Below are positions 7,745 through 63,294 of a stretch of 64,000 bases of DNA, piece by piece. This stretch comes from an uncultured bacterium (lineage in GTDB: Bacteria; Desulfobacterota; BSN033; UBA1163): assembly GCA_938002255.1 (NCBI GenBank), contig CALLAL010000012.1, forward strand, positions 41,456 to 105,455. Direction: 5' to 3'. The position numbers and the translations under genes were made by a program. The notes under the pieces are model-generated. The model was not told the DNA's origin. It worked only from the letters and a program-made list of their open reading frames with translations, and did no database searches. The stretch's first letter is position 1, and each line of letters begins with the position of its first letter.

Positions 7745-9667
7745 ATGAATGATCGATCTCCGGAAATCAGTCAAAAATTATGTAAAATCAAGGATCTTGA
7801 AGTTTCCCCTAAAAGAGAATTCCAGGGCCCATTAGCCATCCTTCTTCTGATCATTGGGTTCCTGATGAGTCTTTTTCATATTATCGTCTTGACCTTCACA
7901 CCCATTGACCCCTGGTTCTTTAGAAGCCTCCACGTTGTCTTCGCCGGTATCCTTGTCTTTTCGTTGGTTCCAGGTTGGGGAAAAGTCCCCCAAAATCGCC
8001 CTCATCTCATGGACTATCTATGGATGGCAACCCTCATCCTTCCAGTCGTCTATTTAACTTTTGAATTCGACACATGGGTTTATCGGGTTGGAGTTACCCC
8101 TACTCTTTTAGACACCCTTTTCTCTCTCCTCTTTGTTCTCGGCGTCCTGGAGATGGCACGGCGAACGACAGGGTGGACCCTTACGATCATTTCTGTGTTT
8201 TTCGTCTTCTACGGTTACTTCGGTCCCTATATGCCAGGAATCCTCCAGCATAAGGGGTATAGTTGGCCTCGCATCTTAACCTATCTTTTCAGTTTGGATG
8301 GAATTCTCAGTATTCCCGTCTTCGCTTCAGCCCACTATATCTTCCTTTTTATCCTCTTTGGTGCATTCTTGGACGCGTCCGGCGCAGGTCGTTTCTTCGT
8401 CGATTTCGCGCGATCGATTGCGGGTGGACGCAGAGGAGGTCCTGCAAAGGTCTCCATCGTATCCAGTGCGATGATTGGAACTGCTTCAGGGTCTTCGGTT
8501 GCCAATGTTGTCGTGGATGGAGTATTCAACATTCCTCTGATGAAAGCCAGTGGATTTAAACCGGCCATTGCCGGTGCGATTGAAGCCATGAACTCAGCGG
8601 GTGGACAGATCGTTCCTCCGGTCATGGGGGCAGGTGCCTTTCTTATGGCTGAGATCCTTGGAATCCCCTACTCAAAAATTGCCCTTGCCGCCATTATTCC
8701 AGCGGCCCTCTACTACAGCGCGGCCTACTGGATGATTGACTTTTATTCCGCTCGAATGGGTCTCCTGGGCATGCCCAAACAAGAACTTCCATCTTTCAGG
8801 AAACTTCTAATAGAAAAGGGATATCTACTGGTTCCCCTGCTTGTTCTCCTATATAGTTTGATGGTCCTCCAGCTTTCTCCTTTCCGATCCGCCTTGTGGG
8901 CGACCCTTGTATTGATTGGGTTGAGCGGGTTCAAAAAAGAGACCCGACTCGATTTAAGAAAAATTTTAAAAACCCTTTCCATCGGACCTCGGAGTGCCAT
9001 GGAGATTGCAGCAACCTGTGCAGCCGCTGGCATCATCGTCGGTATCATCTCACAAACAGGATTGGGAATGAAGTTCGCCATGATCATCATCACCTATTCC
9101 AAAGGAAACCTTTTCATGGCTTTGGTTCTTACAATGATCATTGCCATTGTCCTCGGAATGGGCATGCCTACCACTGCCGCCTATGCGATCTCTGCCTCGG
9201 TCCTTCCTCCAGCACTGATCAAACTGGGAGTCCATCCCATTGGCGCCCATCTTTTCATCTTCTATTTCGCCTGCCTTTCTCCCCTCACCCCTCCTTTGGC
9301 AGTGGCTTCCTACGCAGCGGCAGCCATAGCCAATGCAAGAGTCTGGGAGGTTGCCTGGCTTTCAATGAAATTTGCCATCGCAGGATTTATTGTTCCTTAT
9401 ATGTTTGCCTATGGGCCACCTCTTATCCTTGAAGGAGAGGCGGGGGATATTCTGTTTGCACTCATCACTGGGTTGCTCGGAACGATGACCCTTTCCGCCG
9501 CGGTTCAGGGTTGGTTCTGGGGGAATTTAAATTATCTCAAACGAATCTATCTCCTTGCCATGTCGCTTCTTCTCATCAAACCAGGATGGCAGTCAGACCT
9601 CATTGGATTGGGTCTTTTATTCCTTCTACTTCTCGTTCAATATCTCAAAGGCAAAAAAACTTCCTGA
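7745..9667 (+). CDS. TRAP transporter fused 4TM/12TM permease (TAXI-associated)
   Basis: 640-aa polytopic membrane protein with a DctM-like core fused to a DctQ-like N-terminus. Confidence 0.8.
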   Translation: MNDRSPEISQKLCKIKDLEVSPKREFQGPLAILLLIIGFLMSLFHIIVLTFTPIDPWFFRSLHVVFAGILVFSLVPGWGKVPQNRPHLMDYLWMATLILPVVYLTFEFDTWVYRVGVTPTLLDTLFSLLFVLGVLEMARRTTGWTLTIISVFFVFYGYFGPYMPGILQHKGYSWPRILTYLFSLDGILSIPVFASAHYIFLFILFGAFLDASGAGRFFVDFARSIAGGRRGGPAKVSIVSSAMIGTASGSSVANVVVDGVFNIPLMKASGFKPAIAGAIEAMNSAGGQIVPPVMGAGAFLMAEILGIPYSKIALAAIIPAALYYSAAYWMIDFYSARMGLLGMPKQELPSFRKLLIEKGYLLVPLLVLLYSLMVLQLSPFRSALWATLVLIGLSGFKKETRLDLRKILKTLSIGPRSAMEIAATCAAAGIIVGIISQTGLGMKFAMIIITYSKGNLFMALVLTMIIAIVLGMGMPTTAAYAISASVLPPALIKLGVHPIGAHLFIFYFACLSPLTPPLAVASYAAAAIANARVWEVAWLSMKFAIAGFIVPYMFAYGPPLILEGEAGDILFALITGLLGTMTLSAAVQGWFWGNLNYLKRIYLLAMSLLLIKPGWQSDLIGLGLLFLLLLVQYLKGKKTS

Positions 9668-9680
9668 AAGGATATAAGGT

Positions 9681-11228
9681 ATGATTAACGTTGGCGATTG
9701 GATCAAAAAATGGAGCATTCTTCAGCCTTATAAAGAGGCTCTATTTTTTGAGGGTCACCCAATCACCTACCTCCAATTGAACCATCGCATTAACCAGTTA
9801 TCTCATCTCTTCTTAGCCATGGGGATTGGAAGAGGAGACCGCGTGGCTGTTTTACTCTATAACTGTCCTCCTTATCTTGAAATCTTTTTCGCTCTCTCGA
9901 AGATCGGAGCTATTCTCGTTCCTCTTAACTGGAGGCTGGCAGGGCCAGAACTCGAGTTTATCCTTCGAGACAGTGGTTCCCGACTCCTCATCTTTGAGCC
10001 AGAGTTTGAAAAAATGGTCGCTTTGATCCGGTCTCATTTAACCCTCCCCAACGGAAACTACATCTCTGTGGGAGAGCCTCATCCGGATTGGGCGATGGAA
10101 TATGAAGCATCCCTGGCAAGGTATCCCATCGATGAACTTTCCGAGCCTCATAATGCCGGTGATGACGATCCCCATATCATCATGTACACATCCGGGACAA
10201 CGGGGATTCCAAAGGGTGCTGTCCTCTCCCATCGGAAAACCTTCTTTAACGTCCTCAACGCAGACATTGTCTATAATCTTACCTCCAGGGACATCATGAT
10301 CGTTTCCAGGCCTATGTTTCACTCCGGAGGACTTCTGGTAGAGTCCGCCCCTGTTCTCTACAAGGGTGGAACCCTCATTTTAAAGAAAAGATTTCGCCCC
10401 GAAGAAATACTTGAGGCGATTGAACGATATCGTGTAACGATTCTCGAACTGGCCGCTACGGTTTACCAATTCATTTTACAACAATGTGACTTAAGTCGTT
10501 ACGATCTTCGGTCTGTCCGTTGTTACTTCACCGGTGGCGAACGGATTCCAATCTCGTTACTCAAAGAATATGCGCAAAAGGGAATCGTCATCTCTCAAAT
10601 CTTTGGTCAGACCGAAGCCTCCACCATCACCTTTCTCTCCTCTGAAAAAGCGATCGAAAAAATCGGATCTGTAGGCCTTCCTGTCTTTCACGGAGAGGTA
10701 AAAATCGTTAATAAAGAGGGAAAGGAGGTGGGTTCGGATGAGGTAGGAGAAATTATTGTCAAAGGTCCAACCCTGATGAACGGCTACTGGAACCGACCGG
10801 ATCTCACGGCTGAAACGATTCGGGATGGCTGGCTCTATACCGGAGATCTGGCAAAAAAGGACAAAGAAGGGTATGTATATATCGTCGATCGGGAACGGGA
10901 TATGTATATCAGTGGAGGAGAAAATGTCTATCCGGCTGAAATCGAAAAGGTCTTTTTTACTCACCCGAAAATCTTAGACGTAGGAGTCGTCGGGGTTCCA
11001 GATGGAACATGGGGAGAAGTGGGAAAGGCTTACCTTGTCCTTAAGCCAGGCGAAACAATGGAAGCGGAAGAAGCCCTCACCTTTCTTCAGGGAAAGATCG
11101 CCAGATTTAAGATTCCCAAGTACGTAGAGTTTGTAGAAAAACTTCCTAAAACGGCCAGTGGCAAAATTCAAAAATTCATTTTAAAAGAATGGCACCAGTC
11201 GAAGACTAAGTCTGGAGTTTGGAGTTAG
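9681..11228 (+). CDS. AMP-dependent acyl-CoA synthetase/ligase
   Basis: AMP-binding motif YTSGTTGIPKG and the C-terminal lysine region (SGKIQK). Confidence 0.85.
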   Translation: MINVGDWIKKWSILQPYKEALFFEGHPITYLQLNHRINQLSHLFLAMGIGRGDRVAVLLYNCPPYLEIFFALSKIGAILVPLNWRLAGPELEFILRDSGSRLLIFEPEFEKMVALIRSHLTLPNGNYISVGEPHPDWAMEYEASLARYPIDELSEPHNAGDDDPHIIMYTSGTTGIPKGAVLSHRKTFFNVLNADIVYNLTSRDIMIVSRPMFHSGGLLVESAPVLYKGGTLILKKRFRPEEILEAIERYRVTILELAATVYQFILQQCDLSRYDLRSVRCYFTGGERIPISLLKEYAQKGIVISQIFGQTEASTITFLSSEKAIEKIGSVGLPVFHGEVKIVNKEGKEVGSDEVGEIIVKGPTLMNGYWNRPDLTAETIRDGWLYTGDLAKKDKEGYVYIVDRERDMYISGGENVYPAEIEKVFFTHPKILDVGVVGVPDGTWGEVGKAYLVLKPGETMEAEEALTFLQGKIARFKIPKYVEFVEKLPKTASGKIQKFILKEWHQSKTKSGVWS

Positions 11229-51821: not shown

Positions 51822-53327
51822 ATGAAAAAGGTGGTTTACAGCTTACTCCTTATCCTCTGTCTGACACCTATAGTTCTTTTGGCACAACAGCCAAGTCAAA
51901 AGGGAGCGACGCCATCCATCAGTCAAGAAACCCAAGCCTGCCTCGATTGTCATAAAACCTACACGCCTGGCATCGTGGAAGATTGGCTTAGGAGTCTCCA
52001 TGCTAAAACAACACCTGCCGCAGCGCTAAAGAAACCAGAACTCAGAAGGCGGATGAGCGCCCAAAAGGTCCCCTCCTCTCTGGAAAAAGTCGTGGTGGGC
52101 TGCTATGAATGCCATGCCTTAAACCCCAAAACCCATAAAGACAATTTCGATCATATGGGGTTTCAGATCAACGTGATTGTCTCTCCTCAGGACTGCTCTA
52201 CGTGTCACCCTGTTGAAGCAAAACAATATTCCGGAAGCAAAAAAGCCCATGCGGCTGGCAATCTGCTTAAGAATCCTGTTTTCAATTTATTGGTTGAAAC
52301 GATCCTCAGCAAAAAAATCGTTGAAAATGGAAAGATCGGTCAGAAGCCCTCCTCAGATTTTACCCGTCAGGAAACCTGCTTCAGTTGTCATGGAACAGAA
52401 GTAAAGGTCACAGGGACGGAAACCATCCAAACCGCTATGGGAGGAGTTGATGTTCCCAAACTGACCAACTGGCCAAATCAGGGCGTTGGAAGAATCAACC
52501 CCGATGGAAGCATGGGCGCCTGCTCCTCCTGCCATCCAAGACATCAATTTTCCATTGAGGTAGCTCGAAAACCATACACCTGCGGTCAATGCCATCTCGA
52601 CCCCGATGTACCTGCCTGGAATGTGTATAAAGAAAGCAAGCATGGCAATATCTACTTTTCGAACGATCAAAAGTGGAACTTTAATGCTGTTCCATGGAGG
52701 ATCGGGAAAGATTTCCAAACACCAACGTGTGCGGTTTGCCATAACAGTCTCATCACCACCCCGGACGGGAAAGTGGTGGCGGAAAGGACTCATGATTTCG
52801 GTTCGAGGCTGTGGGTGAGGCTCTTCGGACTCATCTATTCTCATCCTCAGCCAAAACATGGTGATACCTCCGTGATTAAAAATAAAGATGGATTGCCATT
52901 GCCTACCACCTTCACTGGTGAACCCGCCTTAGAGGGGTTGATCGATGAAAAAGAGCAAAAGAAAAGAAAACAATCCATGTCCAAGGTCTGCACACAATGC
53001 CATGCCACTTCCTGGACCAATCTTCATTTTGCTAAACTTGACCATACCATCCTCGAGGTGGATCAGATGAGTCTCGCCTCAACCCAGTTGCTTCTTGAGG
53101 CATGGAAACATAACCTTGCAGAGGGGCTTCCACAGGGCCAAAACCCATTCGACGAAGGAATTGAGCAGATGTGGATCCGGCAGTGGCTCTTTTATGCCAA
53201 CTCCGTCAAATACGCCTCTGCGATGACCGGAGCTCCAGATTATGCGACTTTCAAAAATGGTTGGTGGAATCTAACTGAAAATCTACAGCACATGAAAGAT
53301 TGGATCGAATTCAAGAAAAAGAAATAG
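51822..53327 (+). CDS. Octaheme c-type cytochrome (HAO/ONR/OTR-like multiheme)
   Basis: Signal peptide plus eight CxxCH motifs (CLDCH, CYECH, CSTCH, CFSCH, CSSCH, CGQCH, CAVCH, CTQCH) in 501 aa. Confidence 0.8.
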   Translation: MKKVVYSLLLILCLTPIVLLAQQPSQKGATPSISQETQACLDCHKTYTPGIVEDWLRSLHAKTTPAAALKKPELRRRMSAQKVPSSLEKVVVGCYECHALNPKTHKDNFDHMGFQINVIVSPQDCSTCHPVEAKQYSGSKKAHAAGNLLKNPVFNLLVETILSKKIVENGKIGQKPSSDFTRQETCFSCHGTEVKVTGTETIQTAMGGVDVPKLTNWPNQGVGRINPDGSMGACSSCHPRHQFSIEVARKPYTCGQCHLDPDVPAWNVYKESKHGNIYFSNDQKWNFNAVPWRIGKDFQTPTCAVCHNSLITTPDGKVVAERTHDFGSRLWVRLFGLIYSHPQPKHGDTSVIKNKDGLPLPTTFTGEPALEGLIDEKEQKKRKQSMSKVCTQCHATSWTNLHFAKLDHTILEVDQMSLASTQLLLEAWKHNLAEGLPQGQNPFDEGIEQMWIRQWLFYANSVKYASAMTGAPDYATFKNGWWNLTENLQHMKDWIEFKKKK

Positions 53328-53348
53328 AGACCATCAGGGAGGATTGAG

Positions 53349-53657
53349 ATGTCGCTTAAAAAACCGAGTGAACTGGAAGAGGAATATTTTGCGAGGCTGG
53401 AGTTCGAAACAAGGAAGAAGATTGAAGAGGAGAAGCATAAGAAATTGCAAGAGGAAGAAAAAAAGAGGCTTCGTGAACTCCATTACATGCGATGTCCAAA
53501 ATGCGGCATGGAACTGATAGAGATCGACTATAAACACATCAAAGTCGATAAATGCTCCGAATGTGAGGGCGTATGGCTCGATCCCGGAGAGCTGGAGGCC
53601 ATCTCAAAACTTGAAAAATCTGGGCTTGACAAGCTGTTCAGTGTTTTTAAGAAGTGA
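53349..53657 (+). CDS. Zinc-ribbon domain protein with N-terminal charged coiled coil
   Basis: CPKCG...CSECEG four-Cys zinc ribbon; Glu/Lys-rich N-terminal half. Confidence 0.5.
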   Translation: MSLKKPSELEEEYFARLEFETRKKIEEEKHKKLQEEEKKRLRELHYMRCPKCGMELIEIDYKHIKVDKCSECEGVWLDPGELEAISKLEKSGLDKLFSVFKK

Positions 53658-53694
53658 GCTTTGGGATTCATCAAAGAGTTCACAGGAGAAAGGA

Positions 53695-54390
53695 ATGGGA
53701 ATATTTGAATTAAATCGGCGTCAGCTATTTTTTTTCTTAGGATATGGAGGATTGGCATTACTATCGGGTCTTCCTCAGATGTCCCTCAGTCAAGAAAAAA
53801 AAGAGACAAAACCGCTTTACCTTTCCAAGAACTACAACACCCTCTTAGGGATGGAAGGATTCAGTGACACCCTCCTGAAAAACCATTTTACCCTCTACCA
53901 AGGTTATGTGGCCCAAACGAATCGTTTAATCCAAATTCTGGACCGAATGGTCAAAGAAGGGAAGGTGGGATCTTCGGAATACGCTGAATTGAAAAGGAGG
54001 TTCGGGTGGGAGTTCAACGGAATGAGGCTTCATGAATACTATTTTGAAAATCTGGGGGGGAAGGAAGGAATCGATAAATCAGGGAAGCTCTTTAAGAAGA
54101 TCTCTGAAGAGTTCGGAAATTACGAAACCTGGGAGAAAGATTTTAAAGCCACCGGAATGATGAGAGGAATCGGATGGGCTATTCTTTATCAGGATTCCCA
54201 TTCAGGAAAGTTATTCAATTGCTGGATTAACGAACATGAAATGGGACACCCATCGGGATGTCATCCAATCCTCATCCTCGATGTCTTTGAGCATGCCTTT
54301 ATGATCGATTACGGATTGAAACGGGCTGATTACATCGAAGCTTTTTTTAAGAATCTCAACTGGAAGGCTATCGAAAAAAGATTAGGCTAA
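53695..54390 (+). CDS. Fe/Mn superoxide dismutase-family protein with twin-arginine signal
   Basis: Tat motif NRRQLFFF; C-terminal SOD signature DVFEHAFMIDYGLKRADYIEAFF (compare DVWEHAYY) and GIGWAIL; start at the Met after an AGGAGAAAGGA RBS. Confidence 0.7.
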   Translation: MGIFELNRRQLFFFLGYGGLALLSGLPQMSLSQEKKETKPLYLSKNYNTLLGMEGFSDTLLKNHFTLYQGYVAQTNRLIQILDRMVKEGKVGSSEYAELKRRFGWEFNGMRLHEYYFENLGGKEGIDKSGKLFKKISEEFGNYETWEKDFKATGMMRGIGWAILYQDSHSGKLFNCWINEHEMGHPSGCHPILILDVFEHAFMIDYGLKRADYIEAFFKNLNWKAIEKRLG

Positions 54391-54441
54391 CTCCCCCGCC
54401 CTCCTTTCAAAAAGGGGGCCGGGGGATCGAAGGAGCAGAAC

Positions 54442-54900
54442 TTAACCGGTAAGGGTTGCCAAATAAGCCGCACCTAATTGGTCAATGTGATCTTTCACAT
54501 TCTCAAAGTAATTATAGTGTTCTTCTTCATCCTTTAGAAGTTCCTCAAAAATTTCTTTAGAAACCTGGTCCTTCTCCGCTGCACAGGTCACTGAGGCTTC
54601 GTTATACATCTTCATCGCCGTGGATTCAAGACCCATGTTTGTTTTTAACATCTCCTGAATCGTCTGACCTTTTTTGGCTACAGCATCAGGTTTAGAGGTG
54701 GGCTCCCCTTTCAGAAAGAGAATCCTCTCTGCCAATTTTTCAGCATGCTTCATTTCCTGTATGGCAATTTCTTTAAACTTGGTTGCCAGTTTCCCAAAAT
54801 CCTGATCCTCGAGTTCATAATGTTGCGCCATGTACTGAGTAATGGCATGGAGCTCCCTTGACCGCGCCGCATTCAATAGATCAATTACTTTCTTACTCAT
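54442..54900 (-). CDS. bfr: Bacterioferritin/ferritin-like protein
   Basis: 152-aa four-helix ferritin-like protein with di-iron Glu/His pattern (ELHAITQYMAQHYE...EMKHAEKL...EEEH). Confidence 0.75.
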   Translation of the reverse strand: MSKKVIDLLNAARSRELHAITQYMAQHYELEDQDFGKLATKFKEIAIQEMKHAEKLAERILFLKGEPTSKPDAVAKKGQTIQEMLKTNMGLESTAMKMYNEASVTCAAEKDQVSKEIFEELLKDEEEHYNYFENVKDHIDQLGAAYLATLTG

Positions 54901-55068
54901 AGGCCCTCCTTTTTATTGGTGAATTTTTGCCTATATATATAACATTGAACACATGAGATAACAAGTAAATTTTTAGATCTGTCTATGATACAATCCTTTC
55001 TTCAAGAAGAATCATCCTACTTGTCAAGGGCTTCTTTGAATGTTAAAAATCCTTTAGGAGGAATCATA

Positions 55069-57153
55069 ATGATCGTCAAAACCTTTTGCGCAAGGATGGA
55101 TCATGGTGGATGTGGGATTTTGGTTCATCTGGAGGGTGGAAAAATTCAAAAGATTGAGGGTGATCCTGACTGTCCATTAAATCAAGGAACGATCTGTGCA
55201 AAAGGAATTGCACAGATCGAAAGACTGAATCATCCTGACCGCCTCACCTATCCCATGAAGAGGATGGGGAGCAGGGGGGAAGGAAGATGGAGCCGAATCT
55301 CCTGGGATGAGGCCCTTGAAACGATTTCTCAACAGATCAAGAGGACGATTCATCAGTCAGGTCCGGAAAGCATTGCATTCGCCCAGGGCACACCCAAAGG
55401 CCTTGAACTCTTCCTGATGATGCGGCTTGCCAACCTTCTTCGCATTCCCAATATTTCAACTCCAGGCCATATCTGCCATATGCCGAGAGAAACCGCTTCC
55501 ACACTGACCTGTGGCTTTTTCCCGGTTCCGGATTATGACCATCCTCCTTCATGCGTACTTGTTTGGGGAAGCAACCTCTTTCAGACGAATGAAGAAGGTA
55601 TCATCGGTTCCCAACTTAAAAGGGCGCTGGACAGAGGAGCCAGACTCATTGTCATCGATCCAAGAAAGACAGGGGTGGCTTCACAGGCAGATCTCTGGAT
55701 CAGGCTCAGGCCTGGTACGGACATCTTTCTCGCACTGGGAATGCTCAGGGCAATCATCGATGAGAAGGTCTATGATCAACCTTTCGTCGAAAACTGGACA
55801 AAGGGGTTTCATGAATTGACAGGGCATCTCGAAGATTATTCCCTCGATAGGATTTCAGAGATCACCTGGGTTTCGAAAGAGGAGATCATTAAGGCCGCAA
55901 GGCTCTATGCTCAGAGTAGGCCTGCAGCTCTGCAGTGGGGAAATGCGATCGAACATACGACCAATAGCTTCCAGTGTTCCAGGGCCCTTCTCATTCTCAT
56001 GGCCATCACCGGAAATCTTGATATCCCGGGTGGAAATGTAAACCGGATTGCTCCCCCAGTGATGAGGCCTGGAGAGTTGGTCCAGATCAAGAAATTTCCT
56101 GAGAAGAGGGAGAAAATCCTCAGCCATGAGTTTCGTCTCTCAACGATGATGGGATTTGTCCCCTCTCAGTTGATTGTCAAAGCGATTCTCACGGGAAAGC
56201 CCCATCCCATTCGGATGATGTATATTCAAGGTGGAAATCCCCTCCTCAGTTACGCTAATTCGAAAGACACCTATGAAGCCTTAAAGAAGTTGGATTTTCT
56301 TGCAATCTCAGAGATTTTCCTAACACCGACTGCCCAGATGGCTGACATCGTACTTCCTGCAGCAACCCATTTTGAGTTTGATGACATAGGTCATTATGGT
56401 CTTCCCCACGGGTTCATTCTGGCAAGGCCCAAGATCGTCGAACCCATAGGAGAGTGCTGGTCTGATTTAAACATCTTGAATGAATTGGGGAAAAAGCTCG
56501 GCCTGGAGGAATATTTCTGGCAAAGCACAGAAGATTGCTTGGATGAGATTCTGAGACCCTCAGGATTGACTTATGATGACTTTAAATCAATCGGTTTATT
56601 AAAAGGGAGATGGGAATACCGTTCTTTTGAGAAGAAGGGGTTTTCAACTCCTTCTGGAAAGATCGAACTCTATTCTGAACAGCTGAAAGCGTGGGGTTAT
56701 CCGCCCCTTCCCTCCCCGATGGAATCCGAAACATCTTCTGAAGAAATCCGAAAAGAATTCCCTCTCATTTTTACTTCTGCAAAAGACCCTTACTATTTCC
56801 ATTCCGCCTATCGAAACATCCTTTCTCTACGAAAACTTTCTCCTGACCCAGTTCTGTTGATCCATCCTGACACAGCCTCACGGTTTGGCATCACAGAGGG
56901 AGACTGGGTTGAAATTGAAACGGTAAAAGGAGCGATTCGGCAGAAAGCGAGAATGGATAAGGAAATCGACCGTCAAGTGATCGTCCTCAGTTATGGGTGG
57001 TGGTTTCCAGAACGAAAGGACCTCGAACTTTCCGGTTGGAAAGAGTCTAACCTCAACATTCTGACAGATAATAGTCCTCCTTACGAACCAGCAATTGGCT
57101 CAACCTCTTTGAGAGCCATTCCTTGCCGGATTTCAAAATCGCATCCTTTTTGA
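55069..57153 (+). CDS. Molybdopterin oxidoreductase catalytic subunit (DMSO reductase / MopB superfamily), cytoplasmic
   Basis: N-terminal Cys cluster FCARMDHGGCG...DPDCPLNQGTICAKG; MopB molybdopterin and C-terminal MGD-binding domains; no Tat signal; start at the Met after an AGGAGGAATC RBS. Confidence 0.85.
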   Translation: MIVKTFCARMDHGGCGILVHLEGGKIQKIEGDPDCPLNQGTICAKGIAQIERLNHPDRLTYPMKRMGSRGEGRWSRISWDEALETISQQIKRTIHQSGPESIAFAQGTPKGLELFLMMRLANLLRIPNISTPGHICHMPRETASTLTCGFFPVPDYDHPPSCVLVWGSNLFQTNEEGIIGSQLKRALDRGARLIVIDPRKTGVASQADLWIRLRPGTDIFLALGMLRAIIDEKVYDQPFVENWTKGFHELTGHLEDYSLDRISEITWVSKEEIIKAARLYAQSRPAALQWGNAIEHTTNSFQCSRALLILMAITGNLDIPGGNVNRIAPPVMRPGELVQIKKFPEKREKILSHEFRLSTMMGFVPSQLIVKAILTGKPHPIRMMYIQGGNPLLSYANSKDTYEALKKLDFLAISEIFLTPTAQMADIVLPAATHFEFDDIGHYGLPHGFILARPKIVEPIGECWSDLNILNELGKKLGLEEYFWQSTEDCLDEILRPSGLTYDDFKSIGLLKGRWEYRSFEKKGFSTPSGKIELYSEQLKAWGYPPLPSPMESETSSEEIRKEFPLIFTSAKDPYYFHSAYRNILSLRKLSPDPVLLIHPDTASRFGITEGDWVEIETVKGAIRQKARMDKEIDRQVIVLSYGWWFPERKDLELSGWKESNLNILTDNSPPYEPAIGSTSLRAIPCRISKSHPF

Positions 57154-57303
57154 AAGAAATTGGAACCCCTTTTCTGTTTTAAAGGGTAGGTTCTTAGAGC
57201 ACAAATCTCTATGGTGCTTAAAGGTTTTTGTAACGTTTCAATTTTCTTGACTTTTTCATAAAAACGGATAAAATTCATAAAATTTTGTTGGAGGTCAATT
57301 TCA

Positions 57304-58284
57304 CTGAAGGCACTGGTTACCGGAGGAACAGGATTTATCGGGAGTCATCTGGTTGAGACCCTCCTTAAGAGAGGGGATGAAGTCCGCTGTCTGGTTAGAA
57401 ATAAAAACGATCTGAGGTGGTTAAAAAACCTTCCTATCGAAACGGTTCAGGGTGATTGTAAAGATAGATCCTCTCTGTCAGAGGCTGTAAAGGGAATCGA
57501 TCAGGTATTCCATCTCGCCGGTGTAACTCGGGCGTTGAATGAACAGATCTATATGGACGTTAATGCCCTCGGCACTGAAAATCTGATCCATGCCTGCCTT
57601 GAAAAGAATCCCCATCTCAAAAAATTTATCTATCTTTCAAGTCAGGCCGCTGCGGGTCCCTGTCGGGATGGAGGAAAAAAGAGAGAGTCAGACCAGTGTC
57701 AACCGGTCTCCCCCTACGGAAGAAGCAAACGAAGAGGAGAAGAGTATTGTCTCGAACATGTTAGTCAAATCCCCCTGGTGATCTTAAGGCCTTCTGCGGT
57801 TTATGGGCCGAGAGACAGGGATGTTTATTTCTTTTTTAAGGTTCTGAAAAAGGGAATCAAACCCCTTTTCTCACAAGAGGAACAACACATCAGCCTTTGT
57901 TATGTTGAGGACGTGGTTCAGGCATTGCTTTTATCAGCAGATTCGTACGATGCAACAGGGGAGGTTTTTTTCATATCGGATGGTCAGGACTATCGCCTTG
58001 ATCAAATTGGAGACCTTTTCGAAAAAAGCATGGGAATTCATGCTCGACCCATCTATATCCCCAGATGGGTTATCTCTGGAGTAGCTTCCTTTTCTGAACG
58101 GATTTCAAAATTCACTCAAAACCCCCCATTAATCAATAGAGGTAAGGTTGAGGAGATGATTCAGAAAAATTGGCTCTGCGATATTTCGAAAGCAGAAAAG
58201 GTTCTCGGTTTTAAACCTCGCTTCTCCCTTGCAGAAGGAATTAAAATCACTTATGAATGGTATCTAAAAGAGAACTGGCTATAA
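57304..58284 (+). CDS. NAD(P)-dependent epimerase/dehydratase-family protein (CerR-like)
   Basis: Rossmann motif LVTGGTGFIGSHLV lies upstream of the first ATG (57535), so the gene must use a non-ATG start near 57300 (in-frame CTG at 57304 after GGAGG); exact start uncertain. Confidence 0.65.
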   Translation: MKALVTGGTGFIGSHLVETLLKRGDEVRCLVRNKNDLRWLKNLPIETVQGDCKDRSSLSEAVKGIDQVFHLAGVTRALNEQIYMDVNALGTENLIHACLEKNPHLKKFIYLSSQAAAGPCRDGGKKRESDQCQPVSPYGRSKRRGEEYCLEHVSQIPLVILRPSAVYGPRDRDVYFFFKVLKKGIKPLFSQEEQHISLCYVEDVVQALLLSADSYDATGEVFFISDGQDYRLDQIGDLFEKSMGIHARPIYIPRWVISGVASFSERISKFTQNPPLINRGKVEEMIQKNWLCDISKAEKVLGFKPRFSLAEGIKITYEWYLKENWL

Positions 58285-58302
58285 CAAAGGACGAGGTGGA
58301 AT

Positions 58303-59484
58303 ATGGATGTTTTTGAAAAATGTGAAAAAGTAAATGAGCAGTACCGATCGGTTTATGAGAGCGGAAACTATTTTTTCTTTCGAAAACTCGAATCCGCCCA
58401 AGATGCTGAGGTCATGGTCAATGGCAGACGGGTGATCATGATTGGATCGAATAACTACCTCGGTCTTACAAACCATCCAAGGGTTAAAGAAGCGGCAATT
58501 AAAGCCGTGGAGAAGTATGGCAGTGGCTGTGCAGGGTCTCGTTTTCTCAACGGAAATCTCGAAATTCATGAAGAATTAGAGACGAAGTTAGCCCGATTCT
58601 TTCGAAAGGAAGCCGCCCTCGTTTTTGCAACAGGTTATCAAACCAATCTTGGGGCTATTTCTGCTCTGGTGGGCAGAAATGATGTAGCTATTATCGACAA
58701 GTATGACCATGCCAGCATCATCGATGGCTGTCGCCTCTCCTTTGGCCAAGTCAAGAAATATCGGCACAATGATATGAAGGATCTTGAAAAAATCCTCGAT
58801 TCCAATAAGGAAAAGGGGAAACTGATTATTGTGGATGGCGTTTTCAGTATGGAGGGAGACATTGCCAACCTGCCTGAGATCGTCAGGCTGGCCAAAACTT
58901 ATGGAGCTCGGGTAATGGTTGATGACGCCCACGGCGTCGGCGTACTGGGAAAAGGAGGGAGAGGAACAGCAGAGCACTTTGGACTGGAAGAAGAAGTTGA
59001 TCTGATCATGGGCACTTACAGCAAATCACTTGCTGCCATTGGTGGATTCGTTGCAGGGTCGTGGGAAGTAGTAAATTTTATTAAACATACAGGCCGCTCC
59101 ATGATCTTTAGCGCCAGCCTTCCCCCTGCACTGGTCGCTTCGGTAAACACGGCATTGGATATCATTGATGAACAACCCCAACTGATTGCCCAACTATGGA
59201 AGAACACAAAAAAAATGCTTCAGGGCTATAAGGAGCTGGGCTTTGATACCGGAACGAGTGAAACGCCGATTATCCCCATCATTCTCGGCGATCCCATGAA
59301 GGTTTTTGGGATGTGTCGGCTTCTCTTTGAAAACGGGGTCTTCGCCAATCCAGTGGCAAGTCCTGCCGTGCCACCGGGACGGGAGCTTCTCAGGACAAGT
59401 TATATGGCTACCCATACCGAAGAACAACTTGATCGGGTCCTTGATGCCTTTCAGAAGGTTGGAAAACAGATGAATCTTATATAA
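58303..59484 (+). CDS. spt: Alpha-oxoamine synthase, serine palmitoyltransferase-like (PLP-dependent)
   Basis: High similarity to Sphingomonas SPT remembered: IGSNNYLGL, YGSGCAGSRFLNG, VFATGYQTNLG, DGVFSMEGDIA, GTYSKS (PLP lysine), FSASLPP. Confidence 0.75.
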   Translation: MDVFEKCEKVNEQYRSVYESGNYFFFRKLESAQDAEVMVNGRRVIMIGSNNYLGLTNHPRVKEAAIKAVEKYGSGCAGSRFLNGNLEIHEELETKLARFFRKEAALVFATGYQTNLGAISALVGRNDVAIIDKYDHASIIDGCRLSFGQVKKYRHNDMKDLEKILDSNKEKGKLIIVDGVFSMEGDIANLPEIVRLAKTYGARVMVDDAHGVGVLGKGGRGTAEHFGLEEEVDLIMGTYSKSLAAIGGFVAGSWEVVNFIKHTGRSMIFSASLPPALVASVNTALDIIDEQPQLIAQLWKNTKKMLQGYKELGFDTGTSETPIIPIILGDPMKVFGMCRLLFENGVFANPVASPAVPPGRELLRTSYMATHTEEQLDRVLDAFQKVGKQMNLI

Positions 59485-60623
59485 TGGATAATGATGAAAT
59501 GGTATCACAAACGCTCTCCCTTCGCCCGGTAGAAAATAAGAAAGACCTACTCACCTTCATCCGATTTCCATGGAAGATTTATAAAAACAATGCCTATTGG
59601 ATCCCACCTCTCATCAAGGAACAACTCCAGAAATTCAGTACAAAATCTCCTTTCCGTTCCCATGCGGAAATGATCCTCTATCTTGCCTATCAAGGAGAGG
59701 AAATTGTAGGAAGAATCGCTGGCATCATTGACCGCAATTATGTCGAATTTCATCAGGAGAAAACTGGATTTTTTGGTTTTTTTGAGTGTGTAAATGCCTC
59801 CGAAGTTTCAAACCTTCTTCTCTCATCGGTTGTCTTCTGGCTCAAGGAGAGGGGAATGGAAAAGATAATGGGCCCGATGAATCCCTCCACCAATGACGAA
59901 TGTGGACTGCTCATCGATGCCTTCGATCGATCGCCTTGTCTGATGATGCCTTATAATCCCCCTTACTACCCTACCCTGATCGAGAATGAGGGGTTTAAGA
60001 AGGCCATGGATCTCTATGCATTCCTCCTTGAAAAAGATACCTTTCATCATGCTCGTCTCGAGCGCGTCACCCAACGAATTTTAAAAAAAGAACCTAACTT
60101 ATCCGTTCGCCCTTTGAATCTTCGTCGATTCAATGAAGAGTTAATGATTATCAAGGAGATTTATAATAACTCCTGGAGCAAGAACTGGGGATTCGTTCCC
60201 ATGACCGAAGAGGAGATTGATGATCTGGCAAAGCATTTAAAACCTCTGGTGGTTCCTGATCTGGTACTCTTCGCTTATTTAGGTGATGAACCCGTGGGTT
60301 TTTCAGCGGCTCTACCGGATTATAATGTGGTTCTTAAACATCTGAATGGGAAATTAGGCCCTCTCGGGCTCATCAAATTTCTTTACTTTTCAAGAAAAAT
60401 CAAATTAGTCCGGATTATGCTCCTTGGGATAAAACTCCCCTTCCAAAAAAGGGGGATTGAAGGACTCCTCTATATTGAAACCTTCAAGAGGGGGATCGCG
60501 AAAGGTTACCTTCAGGGAGAATGTTCCTGGATTCTTGAAAACAATATCCTCATGCAACACGGTATCGAAGCGATGGGAGGGAAACGATATAAAACCTATC
60601 GAATCTATGAAAAGCAGATTTAA
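59484..60623 (+). CDS. GNAT-fold N-acyltransferase-like protein (bacterial ceramide synthase-like candidate)
   Basis: 379-aa soluble protein; C-terminal half fits an acyl-CoA N-acyltransferase fold; its start overlaps the spt stop. Confidence 0.45.
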   Translation: MDNDEMVSQTLSLRPVENKKDLLTFIRFPWKIYKNNAYWIPPLIKEQLQKFSTKSPFRSHAEMILYLAYQGEEIVGRIAGIIDRNYVEFHQEKTGFFGFFECVNASEVSNLLLSSVVFWLKERGMEKIMGPMNPSTNDECGLLIDAFDRSPCLMMPYNPPYYPTLIENEGFKKAMDLYAFLLEKDTFHHARLERVTQRILKKEPNLSVRPLNLRRFNEELMIIKEIYNNSWSKNWGFVPMTEEEIDDLAKHLKPLVVPDLVLFAYLGDEPVGFSAALPDYNVVLKHLNGKLGPLGLIKFLYFSRKIKLVRIMLLGIKLPFQKRGIEGLLYIETFKRGIAKGYLQGECSWILENNILMQHGIEAMGGKRYKTYRIYEKQI

Positions 60624-61483
60624 GCTTCTCTTTCTGCTTTCCATAAGTTGTAAAGTCTGGTCGCAATAAAAACAGAGGCAATGGCAAAGACCGATCCTGC
60701 CATGAGATCGATGACATAGTGGTATCGGAGGTAGATCGTGGAAAAGATTAAACCACAGACAACGGGTAAAAAAAGATAGAAAAGAATCCTTTCATAACGG
60801 TGACTTAAAAAAAGAACCATCAGGGCAATCTGGGTATGCCCACTGGGCATACAATCCCTTTTGTTATGTTCCAGAGCGTTTAAAGTATCTCTCACAAAGT
60901 CGGTGATCCAGCTCCCTTCCAGTGGAACGGTGTAGAGATGGGCCTGAGTAAATCGAGGTCCAATAGCAGGAAAGAGGATATATCCGACAAAGGAGAGGTA
61001 GTATCCAAAAGTCAAGATGAAGATGGCCTGATTGAATTCCTTTTTTCCTTTGAGATAGAGTGTAACGATGAGGATGACCGGCAGGAAATAGTAGCTGAGG
61101 TAAGCAAGGGATAAGAGATCTGTTAACCAGGGGGTGATCCACCGCTGTAACCAGACAGTCGGATGAACACCAAAAAGAGAAAAGTCAATCCGGATCAGAT
61201 AGGGATCGACATCTGGCCAGAGATATTGAATCAAATTTCCGAGGGATTGGTAAGTGAGGATCACAAAGAGAATGGGTGAAAAGTCATTCAAAAACCCTCC
61301 AAGGCCTCTTGCTCCTCTTCGGTCGGCATAAATTTTCAATAGGAACAATAGACCCAAGAGCAAAGTATAAAAAAGAAGCTGAGATCTCCAGAGTGGAATT
61401 TTTTCTTTAAAAAAGAGGGTCAGCAGAAAGAGTCCGATAAGAAAAAGAAAGGTAAGCCCCTGAGTTGGAGTCAATCGCCTCAT
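60620..61483 (-). CDS. PAP2-superfamily membrane protein (lipid phosphatase / phospho-headgroup transferase-like)
   Basis: PAP2 motifs PSGH and SR-x5-H-x3-D (RYHYVIDLMAG); six transmembrane segments; probable start at the internal Met (MRRLTPTQG) rather than the ORF start at 61552. Confidence 0.65.
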   Translation of the reverse strand: MRRLTPTQGLTFLFLIGLFLLTLFFKEKIPLWRSQLLFYTLLLGLLFLLKIYADRRGARGLGGFLNDFSPILFVILTYQSLGNLIQYLWPDVDPYLIRIDFSLFGVHPTVWLQRWITPWLTDLLSLAYLSYYFLPVILIVTLYLKGKKEFNQAIFILTFGYYLSFVGYILFPAIGPRFTQAHLYTVPLEGSWITDFVRDTLNALEHNKRDCMPSGHTQIALMVLFLSHRYERILFYLFLPVVCGLIFSTIYLRYHYVIDLMAGSVFAIASVFIATRLYNLWKAEREA

Positions 61484-61554
61484 GGGAAAATGTCTATAGC
61501 CTAAATCAAGAAAAAGTTCAAGAAAGGTAAGATCCATTTCAAGGAGGCACATCC

Positions 61555-63294
61555 ATGCGATATTCGCAATATCTTCTGCCTACTTCGAGGGAAATCCCCT
61601 CTGAGGCAGAAGTCCCGAGCCATCAATTGATGCTTCGTGCAGGGATGATCCGGAAATTGACCTCTGGCATCTACTCCTATCTTCCCTTCGGTCTCCGGTC
61701 CATTCGAAAAGTGGAAGGAATCATCCGGGAGGAGATGAATCGAGCCGGAGCCATCGAAGTTCTACTGCCAATGGTCCAGCCGGCTGAACTCTGGCAGGAA
61801 AGCCACCGATGGGAAGAGTATGGAAAGGAACTGGCTAGGTTCAGAGACCGCCATAATCGGGAATGCTGTCTTGGACCAACCCATGAAGAAGTGATCACCG
61901 ATATTGCACGGAGGGAGATTCGTTCCTATCGCCAGATGCCCATCAATCTTTACCAGATTCAGACGAAGTTCAGAGATGAAATTCGCCCACGCTTTGGAGT
62001 CATGCGAGCCCGGGAATTCATCATGAAAGATGCCTACAGTTTTGATGTGGACGAAAAGGGTGAAGAGATAAGTTATCGCAAAATGGTTGATGCTTATTGT
62101 CGTATCTTCACCCGCTGTGGTCTCAAATTTAAAGTAGTGGAAGCAGAATCCGGGTTAATCGGAGGAACATACTCTCATGAATTTATGGTCCTGGCCGAAA
62201 CCGGTGAGGAGACCATCGTGAGTTGTACTCAATGCTCCTACGCAGCAAATATTGAGAGGGCCGATTTTAAGAGAACGAAGAAACAAAGCCCATCCTCCCA
62301 TCAGCCGTTCAAAACCCTGCAAAAAGTGTTCACGCCTGATCAGAGAACAGTTGAGGAAGTAACCGAATTTCTGAATCTTTCTGCCTCCGATCTGATTAAA
62401 ACACTCCTCTTTGTCTCAGACAGAGGTCCAGTAGCCGCTCTGGTTCGCGGGGATCATGAAATCAGTGAAAAAAAGTTAAAGGCCTTTCTTAAAACAGATG
62501 ACCTTCAATTAGCTGATGAAGAGACCGTTGAGAAGGTTTCTCGCTCACCAAAAGGATTCGCCGGTCCAATAGGGCTCACAATTCCAATCTATGCTGACCT
62601 TGACATTAAAGAGATGGTAAACTTTGTAACGGGGGCCAATGAAAAGGACTATCATTTCATCCACGTGAACCTAGGCAGAGATTTCCAGGTTTCCCAATTT
62701 ATCGATCTGAGGAGATTTTCTCCAGGAGACCTATGTCCCCTCTGTGGAAACGAAACCAGGTTGGATAAGGGAATCGAAGTGGGACACACCTTCAAGCTGG
62801 GGACTAAATATAGTAAGGTTTTAGGAGCAACGTATCTCGATGATAAAGGAGTCGAAAAAGAGATCGTCATGGGATGTTACGGCATTGGTGTCGGAAGGAC
62901 CGTGGCTGCAGCCATCGAACAATATTATGATGAAAACGGGATTATTTTCCCCATGCCCATCGCCCCTTTTCAGGTCCTTCTGCTGCCCGTGAATTTGAAA
63001 GTGGATATGATCCGCGAAATCTCGGAAGAGCTTTACCAGGGCCTTTTAAAGGAGGGGGTAGAAATTCTTTTCGATGACCGCGAGGAAAGCCCTGGGGTCA
63101 AGTTTAAAGACGCTGACCTGATAGGAATCCCCTTAAGAGTTACCCTGGGGGAAAAGAATTTAAGGAAAGGACTAATCGAAATTAAAAAAAGGAGAACGGG
63201 GGAAGTCGTCCTGGTGACAAGAGAATCTGCCATCCTGGAGATCAAAAAGATGATTGCTCAGGAGATGAAAGAGGGAAGTCCGAATTTCTCCTGA
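61555..63294 (+). CDS. proS: Proline-tRNA ligase (bacterial type)
   Basis: Class II aaRS motifs and a ProRS N-terminus; AGGAGG RBS. Confidence 0.9.
   Translation: MRYSQYLLPTSREIPSEAEVPSHQLMLRAGMIRKLTSGIYSYLPFGLRSIRKVEGIIREEMNRAGAIEVLLPMVQPAELWQESHRWEEYGKELARFRDRHNRECCLGPTHEEVITDIARREIRSYRQMPINLYQIQTKFRDEIRPRFGVMRAREFIMKDAYSFDVDEKGEEISYRKMVDAYCRIFTRCGLKFKVVEAESGLIGGTYSHEFMVLAETGEETIVSCTQCSYAANIERADFKRTKKQSPSSHQPFKTLQKVFTPDQRTVEEVTEFLNLSASDLIKTLLFVSDRGPVAALVRGDHEISEKKLKAFLKTDDLQLADEETVEKVSRSPKGFAGPIGLTIPIYADLDIKEMVNFVTGANEKDYHFIHVNLGRDFQVSQFIDLRRFSPGDLCPLCGNETRLDKGIEVGHTFKLGTKYSKVLGATYLDDKGVEKEIVMGCYGIGVGRTVAAAIEQYYDENGIIFPMPIAPFQVLLLPVNLKVDMIREISEELYQGLLKEGVEILFDDREESPGVKFKDADLIGIPLRVTLGEKNLRKGLIEIKKRRTGEVVLVTRESAILEIKKMIAQEMKEGSPNFS

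Follow-up and report, generated by a model that had tools for sequence, protein, structure and literature searches.

A predicted ceramide biosynthesis operon and a convergent gene for an AUR1-like PAP2_3 protein in an uncultured Desulfobacterota bacterium

The ceramide pathway of Caulobacter was reportedly the subject of studies by Stankeviciute in 2022 and Olea-Ozuna in 2021. In Caulobacter crescentus the enzymes Spt, bCerS and CerR correspond to CC_1162/CCNA_01220, CC_1154/CCNA_01212 and CC_1164/CCNA_01222, respectively (PMC11087976; PMC11324152). Spt-like, CerR and bCerS genes, often co-localised, were described in metagenome-assembled genomes (MAGs) of anaerobes from 38 phyla including Desulfobacterota (Ding et al., ISME J 2024, PMC11334938), and Black Sea Desulfobacterota were found to be correlated with 1-deoxyceramides in the same study. 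As for the attachment of a head group, Bacteroides thetaiotaomicron needs its AUR1 homologue BT_1522, a proven PI-dihydroceramide synthase, to make phosphoinositol dihydroceramide (PMC9246714, PMC8791184); up to Sartorio et al. 2022, no Bacteroides enzyme had been assigned to the ceramide phosphoethanolamine-type head-group step, and no identification of a bacterial ethanolamine-phosphoceramide synthase was found in the literature that we searched. Here we analyse a locus within a 64,000-nucleotide stretch of DNA from an uncultured Desulfobacterota bacterium (contig CALLAL010000012.1; the whole stretch is referred to as the window), which encodes an epimerase-family short-chain dehydrogenase/reductase (SDR), an alpha-oxoamine synthase of the serine palmitoyltransferase (SPT) type, a tandem-GNAT N-acyltransferase and a membrane protein of the PAP2_3 family. 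We conclude that this is probably a three-gene, acyl-CoA-using bacterial (dihydro)ceramide biosynthesis locus with a linked head-group enzyme, and sequence comparison makes the assignment of the SDR, the synthase and the GNAT protein to the ceramide trio probable.

The predicted ceramide operon

The SDR, synthase and GNAT genes lie on the plus strand and are tightly packed as one operon (57304-60623). The cerR-like gene for the NAD(P)-dependent extended SDR (57304-58284, plus strand, 326 aa; Pfam Epimerase, E = 7e-43) is separated by only 18 nt from the spt-type synthase gene (58303-59484, plus strand, 393 aa; Pfam Aminotran_1_2, E = 7e-62), and a ribosome-binding site, GAGGTGG, lies in this gap, 6 nt before the synthase ATG. 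The bcerS-like gene for the tandem-GNAT N-acyltransferase of the YghO family (59484-60623, plus strand, 379 aa) begins with an ATG that shares one base with the synthase stop codon (TAATG); as read from the sequence, it is translationally coupled to spt. The gene for the AUR1-like PAP2_3 membrane enzyme (60620-61483, minus strand, 287 aa; Pfam PAP2_3, E = 2e-22) faces the operon, and its stop codon overlaps convergently with that of the GNAT gene. All four open reading frames (ORFs) are long and have thousands of homologues, which rules out chance ORFs.

The comparisons support a synthase of the serine palmitoyltransferase type, closer to SPT than to BioF or Kbl. Among the NCBIfam models SerpalmtaseCFB ranks first with 566 bits, followed by a BioF/Kbl-related subfamily (449), Kbl (419) and BioF (401). 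The best match in the PDB is the SPT of Sphingobacterium multivorum (448 bits, 55% identity), ahead of the Thermus BioF/KBL enzyme (333 bits, 43%), the Sphingomonas SPTs (290-310 bits, 41%) and cysteate acyltransferase (285 and 265 bits). The motifs GSRFLNG, DHASIIDG, VDDAHG, TYSKSLA (with the pyridoxal phosphate (PLP) lysine) and LLRTS (with the arginine) are conserved between the window synthase and the S. multivorum enzyme. Neighbour-joining analysis of 61 sequences places the window synthase in a clade with S. multivorum SPT and with GNAT-adjacent synthases of other phyla, and E. coli BioF, E. coli Kbl and Thermus BioF/KBL separate from this SPT clade with a bootstrap of 64/100.

The GNAT protein gave no match in Pfam and NCBIfam scans and nothing significant in a sequence search against the PDB. 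Its AlphaFold model (pLDDT, the predicted local distance difference test score, 77) is a tandem GNAT, matching tandem-GNAT structures in Foldseek with an E value of 2e-12, and its relatives show weak Acetyltransf_1 matches in the C-terminal half. The family is very large: clustering at 50% leaves 8515 representatives. When annotated plasmid and chromid records were searched in translation, full-length homologues were found in E. coli (YghO, 37% identity across 97% of the window protein), Streptomyces (37%), Sphingomonas parapaucimobilis (34% across 98% of the length, E = 2e-74), Roseomonas, Bacteroides and Phocaeicola. In S. parapaucimobilis the N-acetyltransferase gene closes a series that encodes, in order, an NAD(P)H-binding SDR, an acyl carrier protein, an SPT, LptF, LptG and a desaturase; this SPT scores above the alpha-proteobacterial NCBIfam cutoff (833 versus 670). 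Because the order LptF, LptG, desaturase, N-acetyltransferase matches that of Swit_3905, 3906 and 3908, this N-acetyltransferase takes the position of Swit_3908 of Sphingomonas wittichii, which is listed as an orthologue of Caulobacter bCerS CC_1154 with 45% identity (PMC11324152, S2B table).

Two further loci and a set of fusion proteins lead to the same family. In E. coli PN43 (locus L004, 4525-10122) yghO adjoins LptF/G paralogues and a block of spt, acp, SDR and fatty-acyl-AMP-ligase genes, the SPT of which scores 600 bits against an NCBIfam cutoff of 500. In Streptomyces sp. NBC_01001 (locus L005, 6775-11301) synthase, GNAT and SDR genes form, in this order, one operon on a 666-kb linear plasmid. 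Natural synthase-GNAT fusion proteins of the Rosetta-stone kind also occur (P0275, 780 aa; P0324, 777 aa). The link between the GNAT protein and bCerS is thus consistent from four directions, namely the Sphingomonas, E. coli and Streptomyces loci and the synthase-GNAT fusions, and sequence homology supports the membership of the window protein in the bCerS/YghO family, connected to Caulobacter bCerS through Sphingomonas.

Several side observations were made on these relatives. The E. coli spt block is present at a coverage of at least 80% in 4068 of 5426 complete RefSeq genomes, where it is annotated as 'spt: serine palmitoyltransferase'. A gene for a condensation-domain protein lies downstream of the Streptomyces operon, which suggests a further acylated or otherwise modified product there. 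Other database proteins (P0241, 784 aa; P0307, 503 aa) show the GNAT protein duplicated in full as a tandem, or fused to PilZ.

The first operon gene is assigned to a putative CerR-like reductase mainly on account of its position. The predicted protein carries TGGTGFIG at residue 6 (NAD(P) binding) and YGRSK at residue 138 (the catalytic YxxxK). Across the full length it is 26% identical to the SDR of the SPT cluster in Sphingomonas, 28% to that in E. coli and 37% to that in Streptomyces; for all three, as for the window SDR, HpnA is the best NCBIfam neighbour, below threshold. The start of the gene needed attention, since its frame contains no ATG, GTG or TTG before 57535, where a mechanical ORF list begins it. 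We take 57304 as the correct start because the homologues are 326 aa long and align from residue 1, because relatives have TTG at the equivalent codon (L007-L011 and L057 were compared), and because a Shine-Dalgarno sequence, GGAGG, can be read at 57290-57294 (plus strand), 9 nt upstream of the CTG. The CTG itself is found in three independent assemblies. Automatic gene callers shorten the protein to 243 aa, and the Rossmann motif is lost. The full-length SDR begins directly at this motif, and an N-terminal extension was not visible on inspection, made without a signal-peptide predictor.

The three genes recur together far beyond the window. A scan with a GNAT profile built from a narrow alignment, keeping one genome per species, gave 80 loci from more than 20 phyla, among them Thermodesulfobacteriota, Nitrospirota, Acidobacteriota, Verrucomicrobiota, Planctomycetota, Zixibacteria, Ignavibacteria, Gemmatimonadota and Spirochaetota. 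Within 3 kb of the GNAT gene (431 kb of sequence) there were 54 synthase, 45 SDR and 15 PAP2 homologues; beyond 3 kb (747 kb) the corresponding numbers were 0, 3 and 0. Synthase and SDR were both present in 36 of the 54 loci that have at least 3 kb on either side of the GNAT gene. Eight of these 54 loci (L016, L019 and L021 are examples) lack homologues of all three partners (synthase, SDR, PAP2) within 3 kb, and none of the partner homologues lies within the available flank of the GNAT gene in a MAG labelled Akkermansia muciniphila (L075, 2209-3339). Either the genes are unclustered in such genomes, or the GNAT family has other roles as well.

A number of observations weigh against this interpretation of the trio. 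The 566 bits of the synthase fall short of the SerpalmtaseCFB cutoff of 640, which was built on Bacteroidota sequences for naming purposes and does not reflect mechanism; the beta- and alpha-proteobacterial SPT models likewise stay below their cutoffs, and no NCBIfam model reaches its curated cutoff. The bootstrap value given above lends the split from BioF and Kbl only moderate support. The identity of the SDR to the proteobacterial SDRs at the CerR position (26-28%) does not exceed the background among extended SDRs, so the CerR assignment rests mainly on gene position, and the best NCBIfam neighbour is HpnA in a collection that has no dedicated CerR model. Both bCerS and CerR of the window are tied to the Caulobacter proteins via Sphingomonas and not by direct comparison. 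Finally, a search of the window found no homologue of AcpR or AasR, the acyl carrier protein and acyl-ACP synthetase of Caulobacter.

These results bear on an earlier note on the same DNA, made from the sequence alone. The four genes that it had described were all confirmed, including the SDR start at 57304 and the PAP2 end at 61483, as was their arrangement, with an epimerase-family protein upstream of the synthase and, downstream, a GNAT protein of about 380 aa whose start overlaps the SPT stop. Its proposal that the locus holds the Spt, CerR and bCerS trio of the bacterial ceramide pathway has been strengthened by the grouping with SPT, the homology to Sphingomonas and the co-localisation across phyla. 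A grouping of the synthase with BioF or KBL beside biotin or threonine genes, which the note had named as the alternative to look for, was seen neither in the tree nor in the scores or the neighbouring genes. It had also called the synthase strikingly similar to that of Sphingomonas; the SPT-type character stands, and the closest enzyme is that of Sphingobacterium (55%, 448 bits) rather than those of Sphingomonas (41%, 290-310 bits).

The gap upstream of the operon is 150 nt long and holds a candidate Sigma-70-like promoter, TTGACT-16-TAAAAT (57247-57274, plus strand), which is a consensus match only (10 of 12 positions). A promoter and terminator scan of the region did not rise above shuffled sequence, with 4 sites versus 7 expected from the shuffles. 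Immediately upstream, the region 51822-57153 encodes a multihaem cytochrome (501 aa), a zinc-ribbon protein, a protein with an iron superoxide dismutase C-terminal domain, a ferritin/rubrerythrin-like protein and a molybdopterin oxidoreductase (722 aa). A functional tie between these redox genes and the lipid genes is not evident; a molybdopterin oxidoreductase gene also lies upstream of the cluster in one relative (L008). The window corresponds to a metagenome contig (ENA ERZ6864144), and its nearest named relatives are MAGs of Deltaproteobacteria, Thermodesulfobacteriota and Syntrophaceae.

The AUR1-like PAP2_3 protein

On the basis of its sequence and of a structural model, we tentatively assign the PAP2 protein as an AUR1-like transferase that would place a head group onto ceramide, an assignment to which we give a little less than an even chance. 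When a profile of eighteen cluster-associated homologues from several phyla was compared with the PDB, the best match was yeast AUR1, the catalytic subunit of inositol phosphorylceramide (IPC) synthase (E = 5e-8, 216 positions). These homologues share the motifs PxxGPR, FPSGHT and YLRYHYxxD and the invariant residues H239, H278 and D282 (310-aa numbering), and these residues align with FPSLH and HHYFVD of AUR1. The C1 motif KxxxxxxRP is missing from these homologues; PxxGPR is conserved instead and aligns with AUR1. The AlphaFold model (pLDDT 76), predicted from a shallow alignment of database homologues with 64% identity or more, matched the IPC synthase-ceramide complex 9vj4 with a template-modelling (TM) score of 0.63 at 22% identity, a modest value in Foldseek; all other matches were at 0.4 or below.

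The genomic context of the gene is recurrent. The arrangement SDR-synthase-GNAT-PAP2 is kept in closer relatives, and in MAGs of Bryobacterales (Acidobacteriota) and Verrucomicrobiia the PAP2 gene lies inside the operon, in the order SDR-PAP2-GNAT-synthase and with overlapping reading frames. Genes of this clade adjoin the ceramide operon or sit within it in Thermodesulfobacteriota, Nitrospirota, Acidobacteriota, Verrucomicrobiota, Latescibacterota and others. The idea put forward in the earlier note, that the protein has the fold of the IPC-type synthases and could attach a phospho-headgroup, has thus gained ground through the AUR1 profile match and fold and through the recurrent synteny.

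The longest ORF of the PAP2 gene starts at 61552, and its homologues begin at Met24, that is, at 61483. A start at 61552 would leave 2 nt to the divergent proS start at 61555, and the start at Met24 leaves an intergenic region of 71 nt (61484-61554). A 67%-identical PAP2 homologue lies at 9196-10068 on the minus strand of locus L007, where the deposited annotation instead places a 133-aa ORF on the opposite strand, and one relative (P0404) carries the automatic name 'inositol phosphorylceramide synthase'.

Some of the data speak against the assignment. The protein scores only 28.5 bits with the BT_1522 model NF052609, the cutoff of which is 480, and its homologues in other phyla score 33 bits or less. 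The gene is convergent in the window, not co-transcribed, and present in only 15 of the 80 loci. A Pfam scan of ten mid-size window ORFs revealed no inositol-phosphate synthase and no phosphatidylinositol (PI) synthase/CDP-alcohol transferase.

A competing view, which we regard as somewhat less likely, is that the protein is a lipid phosphatase, either of the LpxE, PgpB or UppP kind or acting on ceramide-1-phosphate or a long-chain-base phosphate, or a mere neighbour of the operon. PAP2 chemistry is compatible with hydrolysis and transfer alike, weak NCBIfam matches point to LpxE (27.5 bits) and to undecaprenyl-diphosphate phosphatase, and besides being convergent the gene is absent from 65 of the 80 GNAT loci. 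However, the profile matches to LpxE and PgpB cover only the last 70 or so residues, compared with the 216 positions aligned to AUR1, and the model reaches TM scores of only 0.27-0.38 with PgpB, LpxE and SMSr, as opposed to 0.63 with IPC synthase. The homologues also have PxxGPR, as in AUR1, in place of the C1 motif. Moreover, the PAP2 gene is found within the ceramide operon in two other phyla and nowhere in the 747 kb of distant flanks.

If the protein is a head-group transferase, the head group is probably not inositol, given the distant relation to BT_1522 and the absence of inositol-lipid genes from the ORFs scanned. More speculatively, the AUR1-like PAP2_3 clade as a whole could comprise bacterial phosphosphingolipid synthases that use a donor other than PI and form, for example, ceramide phosphoethanolamine or ceramide phosphoglycerol.

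The proposed pathway and its amino-acid substrate

By analogy with Caulobacter and Bacteroidota, Spt would join serine and a long-chain acyl thioester in a condensation that yields 3-ketosphinganine, the GNAT enzyme would N-acylate this intermediate, and the SDR would then reduce the 3-keto group to yield dihydroceramide. Acyl-CoA is the likely acyl donor, since AcpR and AasR homologues are absent from the window and a Bacteroidota-type synthase is present. LptF/G and desaturase homologues were likewise absent from the window in the same search, the sole match of which was a generic adenylating enzyme (22% identity, 9762-10973). In a last step, which we put forward more cautiously, the AUR1-like enzyme may move a phospho-alcohol from a glycerophospholipid to the C1-hydroxyl of ceramide, releasing diacylglycerol and giving a phosphosphingolipid; in this lineage the donor would probably be phosphatidylethanolamine or phosphatidylglycerol.

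Serine as the substrate has to be weighed against other amino acids, as the trio might instead make a sphingolipid-like product that lacks the C1-hydroxyl, such as a 1-deoxy(dihydro)ceramide from alanine or a sulfonolipid of the capnine type from cysteate. The amino-acid substrate cannot be read from the motifs or the sequence of the synthase, cysteate acyltransferases are homologous to it (285 bits), and Ding et al. tie 1-deoxyceramides and sulfono-1-deoxyceramides to Desulfobacterota and/or Bacteroidota, all of which counts in favour of such a product. We nevertheless consider it improbable: the synthase scores 448 bits with the serine-using SPT of S. multivorum versus 285 and 265 with the cysteate acyltransferases, and the serine-site motif GSRFLNG is identical to that of the S. 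multivorum enzyme. An AUR1-like transferase associated with the operon would also imply an acceptor with a C1-hydroxyl. If the head-group role is right, it follows that serine is favoured over alanine, since 1-deoxy bases lack the acceptor hydroxyl.

That the synthase is instead a housekeeping BioF (biotin) or Kbl (threonine degradation), with the SDR and GNAT genes as unrelated neighbours, is hardly credible and was rejected on the NCBIfam ranking, the PDB scores and the tree: it is 43% identical to the bifunctional Thermus BioF/KBL and the BioF and Kbl models score it at 400-450 bits, none reaching a curated cutoff, but SPT models and structures clearly outscore these, it lies apart from E. 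coli BioF and Kbl in the tree, bio and tdh genes are absent from the vicinity, and it is coupled to the GNAT start, paired with GNAT in 54 of the 80 loci and fused to it in natural proteins.

The ceramide trio is a known system, and its novelty is low, its presence in anaerobes including Desulfobacterota having been reported in 2024. The view of the earlier note that sphingolipid synthesis would be notable for this lineage is outdated, since Ding et al. 2024 (PMC11334938) covers Desulfobacterota. The locus adds one more well-resolved ceramide locus in an uncultured anaerobic member of the Thermodesulfobacteriota and fits the claims that sphingolipids are widespread in anoxic environments; in addition, comparative evidence supports counting the orphan YghO of E. 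coli among the bCerS family. Some novelty remains only in the recurrent AUR1-like partner. Its clade is a candidate for the head-group step of bacterial phosphosphingolipid synthesis and may mark producers of C1-hydroxy as opposed to 1-deoxy sphingolipids. Should its members prove to be phosphosphingolipid synthases with a non-PI donor, anaerobes would make C1-hydroxy sphingolipids that bear a head group, beyond 'headless' 1-deoxyceramides alone.

Comparison with described systems

The window and Caulobacter have all three enzyme classes in common (alpha-oxoamine synthase, GNAT-type N-acyltransferase, epimerase-family SDR), and in the Sphingomonas cluster the proteins that take the bCerS and CerR positions are homologues of the window GNAT protein and SDR. 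The organisation differs: the trio of the window forms one compact operon, whereas the Caulobacter genes are scattered over a 17-gene region, and, unlike Caulobacter, the window has no dedicated AcpR, AasR or LptF2/G2 nearby. The window SDR has no signal peptide evident by inspection, made without a predictor, while Caulobacter CerR is reported to be periplasmic. The E. coli YghO neighbourhood comprises the five Caulobacter gene classes and represents the five-gene proteobacterial type, which includes genes for an acyl carrier protein and an adenylating enzyme as well as LptF/G paralogues.

The synthase itself is of the Bacteroidota type, with 55% identity to S. multivorum SPT compared with only 41% and 38% to enzymes of the alpha-proteobacterial type. 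S. multivorum SPT (PDB 3A2B, 8GUH) is the closest characterised enzyme and shares its PLP-lysine, His, Asp and Arg motifs with the window synthase. In Bacteroidota, however, spt reportedly lies apart from bcerS and cerR (PMC11334938), whereas in the window all three genes are adjacent.

For the PAP2 protein the points of reference are BT_1522 and yeast AUR1, which belong to the same Pfam family (PAP2_3) and with which the catalytic PSxH and HYxxD are conserved. The relation is nonetheless very distant, as judged by the 28.5 bits to the BT_1522 model and the 22% identity to AUR1. A text search of Ding et al. 2024 (PMC11334938) returned no occurrence of PAP2 or AUR1-like head-group genes. In the trio itself, the Black Sea MAG clusters described there are like the window, as they too come from uncultured anaerobes including Desulfobacterota in which the three genes are co-localised (PMC11334938).

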